Sequence record: OL960580 | Source of the DNA: Escherichia phage vB_EcoM_SA21RB | Strand: one strand, 5' to 3' | DNA length: 64,000 nt | Part shown: one piece after another, positions 32,631 through 34,441 of the stretch | How positions within the stretch are numbered: position 1 is the stretch's first letter | Layout of the letters: the number at the start of each line of letters is the position of its first letter | The notes under the pieces: generated by a model | What the model was told of the DNA's origin: nothing | The model's database searches: none | The model's input: only the letters and a program-made list of their open reading frames with translations | Translations under genes and position numbers: made by a program

Positions 32631-32649
<19 letters not shown>

Positions 32650-33119
32650 TCAGTGATAAAGTTATTTAAATTTTGAGTATATTTCTTTTCATCAAAAATC
32701 TTTTGCTGCCTACGTAAACGCCATGGCATTTCAATGAACACGCACCATATTCCTGATAGTACTGCTGCTGTAAAAATATTAACAAGTATGATTAAAAGAA
32801 TCCAATCTCCCGTTCTGCCTACTGGACTTTCTCCAAAGAAGCAAAATACAAATGATGTCACAGGAAAACTAATGATATACCACAGAATAACCTTCTTATC
32901 TGTGAACCAATCAGCGTTCGTTAATTTAGCGCGACCATTATGAATACACACGAATTTATCATCTGTTGCAGTAGATGGCTTAACTGGTTGATATCCCATT
33001 CTAAACTCCCTAATCAGCAAATTTTTCATATCTTCGGAACAGCCGCTCCAGTCAACTCTATCGACTGAAATGCCATCGTCCCCATCATCTAAATCATACC
33101 AGCGAGTTTTTAAAATCAT
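32631..33119 (-). CDS. small membrane protein (paralog family)
   Basis: 162 aa; two hydrophobic segments; C-terminal [11 protein letters not shown] shared with neighbours. Confidence 0.5.
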
Positions 33120-33490
33120 TTGATTTTCCTACAATCACTCACAAACTCTTTCATTGATTCATTTTCAATATAAGACATGTAGTTATTATATTCTTTTAAT
33201 TGTATTTTGTAATCCTTTTTTCTTTGCCAATTTATTTTAAAATTATCATAATGAAAATATAAAATGATACTAAAGAATGAAAATAATGAAATTGCTATAG
33301 TATAATGAAGTTCACTCCAAACTTCTATTATATCTACTATACCGCTGACGTTACTGCGGATGTTTAAAATAATACAGTCAATCATTAATCCAATAAGACT
33401 ACCAGCAAGAGCTGCAGCCAACGCCACAGCAAAAATTAAAAATGACTCAGAAAAAGAATATTTGACTTTATTTAGTTTTGGCTTTTGCAT
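33116..33490 (-). CDS. small membrane protein (paralog family)
   Basis: 124 aa; two hydrophobic segments; C-terminal KEFVSDCRKIK. Confidence 0.5.
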   Translation of the reverse strand: MQKPKLNKVKYSFSESFLIFAVALAAALAGSLIGLMIDCIILNIRSNVSGIVDIIEVWSELHYTIAISLFSFFSIILYFHYDNFKINWQRKKDYKIQLKEYNNYMSYIENESMKEFVSDCRKIK

Positions 33491-33885
33491 CGTGATTCCT
33501 TAACAAATTTCATAATTTCATTAAATTCATACATATTTAGTTTAAGCTGGTGTTCCTTTTTAATCTTTTTACACTGTGCTTTCCAATCACGTACGCGTTT
33601 ACGATAATGTCTTCCTTGATACCAGTATCCTACCCAATTTACAGGTACTAATAAAAGTGGAACTATTAATGGAAGAATTAGCATTAATACAAGTATTTCG
33701 CCAGAATCAATATCAGTCATAACATCTAAAACACCTCCAATAATCAATAGAATTACAAATGATATGAGTATAACAGGACCTATTAATACATCAGTAGAAA
33801 TTATCTGACGCTTTAATTCATACTTCAACGGTTTACTTGGAAGGTATAGTGATGGTTTTGACATATTCTCTGCATTCCTTAACAA
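33472..33885 (-). CDS. small membrane protein (paralog family)
   Basis: 137 aa; two hydrophobic segments; C-terminal MKFVKESRCK; true start probably internal (MSKPSL). Confidence 0.5.
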   Translation of the reverse strand: MLRNAENMSKPSLYLPSKPLKYELKRQIISTDVLIGPVILISFVILLIIGGVLDVMTDIDSGEILVLMLILPLIVPLLLVPVNWVGYWYQGRHYRKRVRDWKAQCKKIKKEHQLKLNMYEFNEIMKFVKESRCKSQN

Positions 33886-34441
33886 ATTTTTCTAATAATA
33901 AATCGCTTTCAAAATTGGGATTTTCTACGAATTTATCAAAAAGATCATCAACAATAGTTAAGATATTCTTTTTACTAAGAATACGTTTATTTTCATGCTT
34001 CGTTTCAGAATCAACTATAAGAGTAAAGAAATATTTCTTGCCCTGAAATTTTACAGTAGTATCAATATAAAATAAATTTGACTTTTGTAAATTACGTTTA
34101 AACCATGCGTCACTTAAACTATAAACACCGAGATAATCATAATCGTCGTTTAAATAACAGACCGTCCATTCAGGGGAAACGAAATCAGTAAATTCAACGT
34201 CAAAATCGCATGTTAATAAATGAATTGATTCAATACTGTTAATAAGTATTCCAGGACGTATTAAAGACTTTTTACCTCTGGAAAATCTTCCATAAAGACT
34301 TTCATCAGTTTCATATGAAGAACCCCAATAATAATTACGTCCTTCTGCCATACGTTTAAGAGCATTTAGTAATTGGTCTGGAACATCAACTTGTCTTTGG
34401 AATTCTTCAAACATTGAATTGAAATCACTTTGCATTTTCAT
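33833..34441 (-). CDS. hypothetical protein
   Basis: 202 aa; C-terminus EKFVKECREYVK shares the FVKEC motif with downstream membrane genes. Confidence 0.5.
   Translation of the reverse strand: MKMQSDFNSMFEEFQRQVDVPDQLLNALKRMAEGRNYYWGSSYETDESLYGRFSRGKKSLIRPGILINSIESIHLLTCDFDVEFTDFVSPEWTVCYLNDDYDYLGVYSLSDAWFKRNLQKSNLFYIDTTVKFQGKKYFFTLIVDSETKHENKRILSKKNILTIVDDLFDKFVENPNFESDLLLEKFVKECREYVKTITIPSK

Follow-up and report, generated by a model that had tools for sequence, protein, structure and literature searches.

Why do four adjacent early proteins of a T4-like phage, three of them predicted to span the inner membrane and one soluble, end in similar residues? The question arises at positions 32,631 to 34,441 of a 64,000-nucleotide stretch (the window) from Escherichia phage vB_EcoM_SA21RB (sequence record OL960580). 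The window is a Tequatrovirus (T4-like) genome, colinear with T4 e.6, e.5, e.4, e.3, e.2, nudE and e, and 505 phage records match the 2.3 kb around the locus at 90-97% nucleotide identity; against Tequatrovirus genomes the figure is 92-97%. An earlier note had placed four open reading frames (ORFs) here; all are present on the minus strand, one with a corrected start, and sequence matches assign them to T4 genes e.5, e.4, e.3 and e.2, already-known ORFs of hypothetical function. About half of the T4 genes have no known function, e.2-e.5 among them. Comparison across genera argues that the shared terminus is selected as a peptide, while the DNA encoding it doubles as a site where genes are initiated and exchanged. 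The four genes are as follows.

33833 to 34441, minus strand: e.5, 202 amino acids, soluble; Pfam Phage_T4_Y06P, phrog_2607; C-terminal helix with LEKFVKECRE
33472 to 33864, minus strand: e.4, 130 amino acids from ATG; Pfam Phage_T4_Y06O, phrog_2604
33116 to 33490, minus strand: e.3, 124 amino acids; phrog_2330, without a Pfam family
32631 to 33119, minus strand: e.2, 162 amino acids, intact; Pfam Phage_T4_Y06M, phrog_2203

Twelve tails from four genera, aligned on a conserved Phe, give the motif Phi-x-x-F-[IV]-x-[ED]-[C/S/I/V]-R. Its hydrophobic positions, at i, i+3, i+4 and i+7, correspond to one face of an amphipathic helix. In the window it is encoded by four segments.

33869 to 33895, minus strand: e.5 motif, L183-R191, LEKFVKECR; holds AAGGA 11 nt before the e.4 ATG
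33496 to 33522, minus strand: e.4 motif, I115-R123, IMKFVKESR; holds AAGGA 6 nt before the e.3 ATG
33128 to 33154, minus strand: e.3 motif, M113-R121, MKEFVSDCR
32643 to 32669, minus strand: e.2 motif, L151-R159, LNNFITECR

Chance falls far short of explaining the similarity of these four tails. In the window's six-frame ORFs of 40 amino acids or more (45,864 residues), F[IV].[ED]CR, the strict pattern, has three matches, which are the C-terminal ends of e.2, e.3 and e.5. A less strict form, F[IV].[ED].R, predicted from background at about 0.0013 per 25-residue tail, is present in 4/4 adjacent tails. T4 bases 1-50,000 contain no match to the motif pattern. A back-translated scan of IMG/VR for F-[IV]-x-E-C-R-K-stop returned only e.2 of Dhakavirus and Gaprivervirus and e.3 of Mosigvirus, the remaining matches being short chance ORFs. 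A C-terminal motif common to e.2-e.4 and e.5, with the same strings, had been claimed in the earlier note and was recovered here.

The motif is kept in orthologs that are otherwise 28-54% identical, with changed codons. The e.2 tails end ...SFIEECRK in Gaprivervirus and ...EFIEECRK in Dhakavirus; Mosigvirus has ...NFIKECRK (e.3), ...EFVKEIRCK (e.4) and ...QFIMECREYVK (e.5), and the Gaprivervirus/Dhakavirus lineage ...RFIAECREYAK (e.5'), ...EFIKEVRNGTA (e.4') and ...IFIKECKS (e.3'). Across these tails Arg is encoded by AGG, AGA, CGA or CGT, Cys by TGC or TGT, and Phe by TTT or TTC. The gene that follows each motif differs between genera. For e.2, e.4 and e.5, the motif window falls in the top 6-22% of conserved 10-residue windows in cross-genus pairs, and BLASTP aligns a 184-amino-acid Gaprivervirus e.5 relative over the motif segment only. 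Members of the e.4 lineage have S, I or V in place of the Cys, which makes a reactive or metal-binding cysteine unlikely.

The proteins encoded at 36109-36672 and 30986-31567 (minus strand) begin with the internal-protein capsid-targeting sequence, MKTYAEFLTEA... and MKTYQEFIAEA..., whose core, Phi-x-x-F-[IL]-x-E, is similar to the opening half of the motif in e.2-e.5. Kinship to this sequence (MKTYQEFIAE; F-I-x-E followed by gp21 cleavage) was set aside: by our estimate the pattern is too short to stand out from chance, and e.2-e.4 are early membrane proteins.

The motif DNA lies at the junctions of overlapping genes. The overlaps are 32 nt (e.5/e.4), 19 nt (e.4/e.3) and 4 nt (e.3/e.2), e.2 and nudE are joined through an ATGA stop/start, and e.5-e.4-e.3-e.2-nudE is one translationally coupled early transcription unit of accessory genes. 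The repeats at the junctions, and the gene that closes the run, are listed here.

33874 to 33889, minus strand: 16-nt block AAATTTGTTAAGGAAT, copy 1, end of e.5
33495 to 33510, minus strand: 16-nt block AAATTTGTTAAGGAAT, copy 2, end of e.4
33116 to 33136, minus strand: e.3/e.2 junction repeat GATTGTAGGAAAATCAAATGA; D-C-R-K-I-K-stop, AGGA Shine-Dalgarno sequence, ATGA stop/start overlap
32631 to 32651, minus strand: e.2/nudE junction repeat GAATGCAGGAAATTAAAATGA, 18/21 bases the same as at the e.3/e.2 junction
32194 to 32634, minus strand: nudE (Nudix hydrolase), last gene of the translationally coupled run

The Shine-Dalgarno sequence of the next gene is AAGGA 6 nt before e.3 and 11 nt before e.4, and AGGA 7 nt before e.2 and nudE. 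The motif DNA thus overlaps the next initiation signal, as the earlier note had proposed. Its further claim, of a repeated DNA block that encodes the motif, holds exactly where e.5 and e.4 end; e.3 and e.2 finish in other codons, with the Shine-Dalgarno sequence AGGA in the Arg-Lys codons. Exactly two copies of AAATTTGTTAAGGAAT occur in the 64 kb, with no further site at 0-2 mismatches. At some junctions the Shine-Dalgarno sequence lies in the x-E codons (AAGGA or GAGGA), whereas the Tequatrovirus e.3 and e.2 ends carry a two-codon extension with AGGA in the R-K codons. At the e.5 junction of the Mosigvirus phage moha no Shine-Dalgarno sequence was found inside the motif, and in e.5' of the Dhakavirus-related contig L035 it is downstream of the motif. 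Junction RNAs fold no better than shuffled sequences, or worse, and a conserved RNA structure was rejected on this basis. AAATTTGTTAAGGAAT also agrees at 12/15 positions with AAAAUUGUUAUGUAA, the RegA SELEX (systematic evolution of ligands by exponential enrichment) consensus. A RegA translational-repressor site was rejected, because at up to 3 mismatches the window holds 9 matches against 12.6 expected by chance.

Natural variants record recombination within these junctions. Phages T2 and PP01 lack e.2. In T2, e.3 ends ...FVSD/CRKLK, with e.3-type DNA before the slash and the e.2/nudE junction from TGC AGG AAA TTA AAA TGA on; the hybrid DNA therefore places a crossover within the 21-nt junction repeat, after which e.3 remained in frame and coupled to nudE. 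In Dhakavirus IME341 the e.4-like gene of the related contig L035 is missing, and e.5' is joined to e.3'. Here the sequence is that of the e.5'/e.4' junction up to GGTTCAAAATG and of the e.4'/e.3' junction from ATGGAACGG onward. The two losses are independent crossovers inside junctions, with the neighbours in frame and still coupled. They show how overlapping coupled genes in T-even variable regions can come and go while their neighbours stay unbroken.

Phage UFV09 (L037:1375-1695; protein P0096) carries an in-frame chimera, e.4(1-31)::e.2(88-162), joined at the 6-nt microhomology TCCTGT within the first transmembrane segment (TM1); this 106-amino-acid protein with two transmembrane segments stands in place of e.4, e.3 and e.2 and retains the tail motif of e.2. 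An internal deletion in e.3 of phage moha spares the last ~30 codons and the start of the next gene. Single-gene loss appears to be common, since tblastn record counts differ (643 for e.5 and e.4, 607 for e.3 and 533 for e.2). In Dhakavirus and Gaprivervirus, e.2 lies several kb away from the e.3-e.5 relatives. Some junction features are specific to a lineage and common to neighbours within it: CRK[IL]K-stop on both e.2 and e.3 and the 16-nt block occur only in Tequatrovirus, and AAGGRGGTTCRWAATG occurs in L035. Recurrent exchange between junctions would produce this outcome.

These events recall the shuffling mediated by intergenic early-promoter and stem-loop cassettes (PeSLs) in T4-type phages, in which short gene-boundary repeats are likewise reported to insert, delete or replace single genes in variable regions (Arbiol et al. 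2010, PMC2839356; PMC4122927). PeSLs are described as intergenic, whereas the e.2-e.5 repeats lie within coding sequence (the last codons, the Shine-Dalgarno sequence and the start codon), have no promoter or hairpin, and leave products in frame and translationally coupled.

Are the genes themselves related beyond their tails? The earlier note had called e.2, e.3 and e.4 paralogs; this stood for e.3 and e.4, while for e.2 similarity is confined to the last 18 residues and to e.3. Comparison of e.3 and e.4 profiles with hhalign gave 93.8% probability (E=1.7e-7, 115 columns) and, with the motif-bearing tail trimmed, 57.5% (E=1e-4) over the N-terminus and TM1. Neither score was reached by any of 40 shuffles in which the hydrophobic blocks kept their positions. 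This signal required divergent members (P0115, L035 and IME341); with few sequences, hhalign showed tail similarity only. The two proteins also have a common N-terminus, M-[QS]-K-P-x-L, and are reciprocal second-best PHROG matches. Profiles of e.2-e.4 against the unrelated T4 proteins Imm, Sp, 55.8, 47.1 and gp40, used as controls, gave hhalign probabilities of 1.5% or less. The profile evidence thus supports e.3 and e.4 as full-length paralogs, a true duplicate pair.

The match of e.2 to e.3 covers the last 18 residues only (84%, E=8e-6). With tails trimmed, e.2 against e.3 or e.4 gave probabilities of 1.8% or less, and untrimmed e.2 has no match to e.4. A weak colinear PHROG cross-match (E=0.015) links Dhakavirus e.3' to the e.2 family. 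The similarity of e.5 to the other tails spans ~10-15 residues. On these comparisons, e.2 and e.5 appear to have only the terminal module in common with the pair.

Hydropathy bears out the two hydrophobic helices that had been noticed in each of e.2-e.4: Kyte-Doolittle 19-residue windows show two segments above 1.6 in each of these proteins, and none in e.5, nudE or e.6. The segments are predicted as follows, all on the minus strand.

33730 to 33792 and 33640 to 33702: e.4 TM1 (~residues 25-45) and TM2 (~residues 55-75); basic cytoplasmic tail of ~55 amino acids
33365 to 33442 and 33254 to 33310: e.3 TM1 (~residues 17-42) and TM2 (~residues 61-79); cytoplasmic tail of 45 amino acids
32835 to 32891 and 32733 to 32804: e.2 TM1 (~residues 77-95) and TM2 (~residues 106-129), after an acidic N-terminal domain of ~75 amino acids; tail of 33 amino acids

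The loops between the segments are 9-18 residues long, acidic, and contain 0-1 Lys and Arg, while the 15-residue cytoplasmic flanks have 4 each. This charge distribution predicts that both termini of e.2-e.4 are cytoplasmic. The proteins would accordingly be helical hairpins of the inner membrane, and e.5 is predicted to be cytoplasmic. T4 annotation already lists e.2-e.4 as "predicted membrane protein". A low-confidence AlphaFold2 model of e.2 draws TM1 as a helix at residues 69-95 and TM2 plus the tail as a single helix at 103-161, and the model of e.5 has a C-terminal helix at 181-196. Fold searches with e.5 were uninformative, and a comparison with the small alarmone synthetase or RelA-SpoT fold, judged by superposition and catalytic motifs, was negative.

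The T4 RNAs of these four genes are all early, and each of the proteins has been detected, e.4 and e.5 early, e.2 in the middle period and e.3 late (PMC9697503 supplement). Knock-downs of e.2-e.5 by CRISPRi-ART were scored "Not Fit", meaning no defect (PMC11879866 supplement), so the genes are dispensable in that assay. A transposon study that recovered T4 anti-defence genes does not mention e.2-e.5, and they are not mentioned among T4 genes reported as conditionally essential for RexAB, RnlAB, CBASS, DarTG1/2 or minimal medium; both are absences of mention only. A literature search with the gene names found no functional study, PADLOC gave no match of e.2-e.5 to defence or counter-defence models, and NCBIfam likewise gave no match.

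Could the common C-terminus be a mere by-product of translational coupling, in which a Shine-Dalgarno sequence, an A-rich spacer and the ATGA overlap are translated into similar, functionless peptides? A Shine-Dalgarno-like element does lie in or beside the motif at most junctions, 5-11 nt before the next start, and GAA for E and AAA for the final K, just before TGA, suit the needs of such an element and its spacer. The junction RNA is unstructured, as in open initiation regions, and the part of moha e.3 that survives the deletion is the piece with the next gene's initiation region. No Shine-Dalgarno sequence, however, explains F, [IV], C and R. Arg is spread over four codons and Cys over two with the residues unchanged, the peptide persists where the Shine-Dalgarno sequence shifts from the x-E to the R-K codons, and FIMECRE and FIAECRE are kept in moha e.5 and L035 e.5', where the signal is missing from the motif or downstream of it. 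Nor does any other coupled junction among the 550 ORFs in the window give a motif peptide. Because residues are kept despite changed codons and shifted or missing Shine-Dalgarno sequences, the motif peptide appears to be selected at the protein level in its own right, with the overlap of initiation signals secondary. We consider the by-product explanation unlikely. A chance origin from the ribosome-binding site, which the earlier note had raised against its own claim, is rejected on the same codon changes and on the e.5 motifs of moha and L035. We give still less credence to the idea that recombination alone, through gene conversion between junctions and concerted evolution, keeps the tails alike with no protein or RNA function beyond short homology. 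The two documented crossovers inside junctions and the lineage-specific features common to neighbours in one genome (CRK[IL]K-stop, the 16-nt block and AAGGRGGTTCRWAATG) speak for it, but conversion evens out DNA within a genome and leaves unexplained why the same residues stand in different codons between genera. Even within one genome, e.2 and e.3 have corresponding motif residues in different codons (ATC ACT GAA TGC against GTG AGT GAT TGT).

A different kind of explanation concerns function. The earlier note had suggested superinfection exclusion or lysis timing, and e.2-e.4 could be imagined as Imm-, holin- or antiholin-like proteins, their two transmembrane segments and charged tail beside the lysozyme gene e recalling class II holins. 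The likeness is one of architecture: e.2-e.4 are expressed early from a locus two genes away from e, and have two transmembrane segments, cytoplasmic termini and a basic tail in the cytoplasm. The early T4 protein Imm is likewise small and has two transmembrane segments, and like class II holins it sits in the inner membrane with a charged C-terminal tail. In contrast to these proteins, e.2-e.4 have longer tails (33-55 amino acids) that end in the conserved motif, and show no sequence or profile similarity to them. Pfam, PHROGs and NCBIfam gave no match to Imm, holin or antiholin families, hhalign probabilities were 0.4-1.1% for T4 Imm and no higher than 1.5% for Imm and Sp together, and the PADLOC search was likewise negative. 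The periplasmic loops comprise just 9-18 residues, so that nearly all of the non-membrane mass is cytoplasmic. A holin or antiholin should show a family match, late expression and a requirement in lysis; we found no family match, the T4 RNA is early, and knock-downs had no fitness effect. The genes are also lost singly in many natural phages. In T4, mutants in t or e do not lyse even though e.3 and e.4 are intact, and a true holin expressed early would be lethal. The suggestion found no support, and a role of this kind is improbable.

In the reading that we favour, and which we regard as about evenly balanced between holding and failing, e.2-e.5 are accessory early proteins located where the inner membrane faces the cytoplasm, the amphipathic helix at their C-terminus is a contact surface common to all four, and the DNA encoding it serves as initiation region and cassette boundary. 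Hairpins e.2-e.4 would sit in the inner membrane and e.5 in the cytoplasm, each ending in a cytoplasmic, motif-bearing helix. The hydrophobic helix face would mediate protein-protein contact, either as self-association or with a single shared partner, from host or phage, on the cytoplasmic side of the membrane. Two further roles of the motif DNA are directly visible in the sequences. It holds or adjoins the next gene's Shine-Dalgarno sequence and overlapping stop/start, and the likeness of neighbouring junctions makes them crossover sites, at which single genes are removed or added in frame and the last few codons swapped between neighbours; such exchange in turn keeps the junctions of a lineage alike. 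The pair e.3 and e.4 stems from tandem duplication, and e.2 and e.5 would have come by the terminal module through recombination at junctions or through selection for a common contact. Each motif can probably act in the absence of the other three proteins, given that e.2 stands apart in two genera, Dhakavirus and Gaprivervirus, and that any of the genes can be lost by itself. The biological role may be an accessory host-takeover or conflict function at the membrane, such as exclusion or counter-defence.

Several points weigh against this reading. The AlphaFold2 models are poor (predicted local distance difference test scores of 50 and 57), the helices rest mainly on sequence periodicity, and no more than roughly half of the tails have a significant hydrophobic moment. 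Between the e.3 proteins of the cross-genus pair, conservation of the motif window does not exceed the average, a comparison in which the two-residue extension affects the alignment. Lying in or next to translation-initiation regions, the motif may owe part of its conservation (the E and K codons) to constraint on the RNA. Outside the tail, no homology of e.2 and e.5 to the others can be demonstrated, so that for these two proteins convergence, conversion and common descent are inseparable.

A bolder version would make the C-terminal helix a portable docking tag, by which unrelated early proteins, three membrane anchors and one soluble protein, reach one common host or phage target at the inner membrane, with the tag DNA as an in-frame cassette boundary for adding, dropping and swapping coupled genes. 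We think this possible but doubtful. If true, it would be a coding-sequence counterpart of the shuffling of promoter cassettes by PeSLs; if there is no partner at all, the locus is an ordinary dispensable set of accessory genes. A motif common to four adjacent early proteins offers a handle, both as a bait peptide for partner hunting and as a defined target for mutation. It links three families that are separate in Pfam and one without a Pfam family; Pfam and PHROGs list e.2-e.5 as separate, unlinked families, and the three Pfam families take their names from uncharacterised UniProt entries. Neither the common C-terminal motif nor the homology of e.3 and e.4 came up in a search of the accessible literature; both, together with the junction crossovers, appear to be undescribed and are incremental. 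On balance the accessory genes of this locus are ordinary ones, and the motif that they have in common is of modest interest.

The gene assignments rest on the following matches. Protein e.5 matches phrog_2607 at E=2.6e-108 and PF26876 is present in 14/14 homologs, placing it in the T4 e.5 family. Protein e.4 matches phrog_2604 at E=7.5e-71, in keeping with the T4 e.4 family (PF26873), which is annotated on the equivalent 130-amino-acid gene in L039 and on the distant relative P0115. An exhaustive HMMER search of 1.84 billion representative proteins returned six relatives of e.4, all from T-even coliphages, of which P0111 is 95% identical. The T4 e.3 family is indicated by a match to phrog_2330 at E=1.6e-61 over residues 1-122, with homologs 79-98% identical, and the T4 e.2 family by a match to phrog_2203 at E=3.7e-79 over residues 1-160, with PF26896 in 51/51 homologs. 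Word-indexed protein searches gave close relatives only; divergent members came from the exhaustive search and from the contigs L035 and IME341. T4 e.2-e.5 (UniProt P32273, P32274, P39222 and P39223) have the same order, strand and neighbours (e.6 upstream, nudE and e downstream) and ~84-94% protein identity to the window proteins. Public labels on e.3/e.4 homologs ("sulfurtransferase", "DNA primase", "phosphoserine phosphatase") and on e.6 ("host specificity protein") find no support in Pfam, NCBIfam or PHROGs, and we regard those on e.3/e.4 as annotation noise.

For e.4, the ATG at 33864 (MSKPSL...) is most likely the start, rather than the TTG at 33885. The ATG is the start annotated in T4 and is kept in orthologs, whereas the TTG merely begins the longest ORF and has no upstream Shine-Dalgarno sequence. 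The intact 162-residue e.2 of the window differs from that of the T4 reference, which is cut to 102 amino acids by a frameshift in an A-run. There (L001:3492-3961, between nudE and e.3) e.2 lost one A, AAAAAA becoming AAAAA, and an unannotated remnant still codes the part comprising TM2, tail and motif, out of frame; the truncated product has been seen in T4 proteomics.

The start of nudE is probably the ATG of the ATGA overlap at 32634 (MKTLSAG...) and not the upstream ATG at 32649, making NudE 5 residues shorter than annotated. The upstream ATG (MQEIKMKT..., the T4 annotation) falls within the E-C codons of the motif in e.2 and lacks a Shine-Dalgarno sequence. The ATG at 32634 has AGGA 7 nt upstream, is called as the start in MK327937 (146 amino acids) and is annotated for T2 nudE.

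In some relatives the region between e.3 and e.2/nudE holds a second tandem set with a common C-terminal Cys motif. In Mosigvirus WFK (L002:3357-4151), RB69 (L007:4290-5085) and Dhakavirus IME341 (L038:1796-3038), three to five tandem small soluble ORFs of 65-101 amino acids all end G-[AG]-W-V-S-S-S-x-x-C-stop, with the variants WFSSSMSC and WYPSSC. A regular-expression scan found no member of this set in the window.

Upstream of the run, between the e.6 stop and the e.5 start, the minus (coding) strand carries a stable GGGGC-UUCG-GCCCC tetraloop hairpin at 34460-34480 with no U-run after it; it looks like an RNA stability or processing hairpin rather than a terminator. Three minus-strand sites at 35119-35147, 35576-35604 and 35913-35941, just upstream of e.6, e.7 and e.8, strongly match sigma-70-like promoters (TTTACA-17-TATAAT and similar) and are consistent with T4 early promoters feeding the run from e.6 to nudE.

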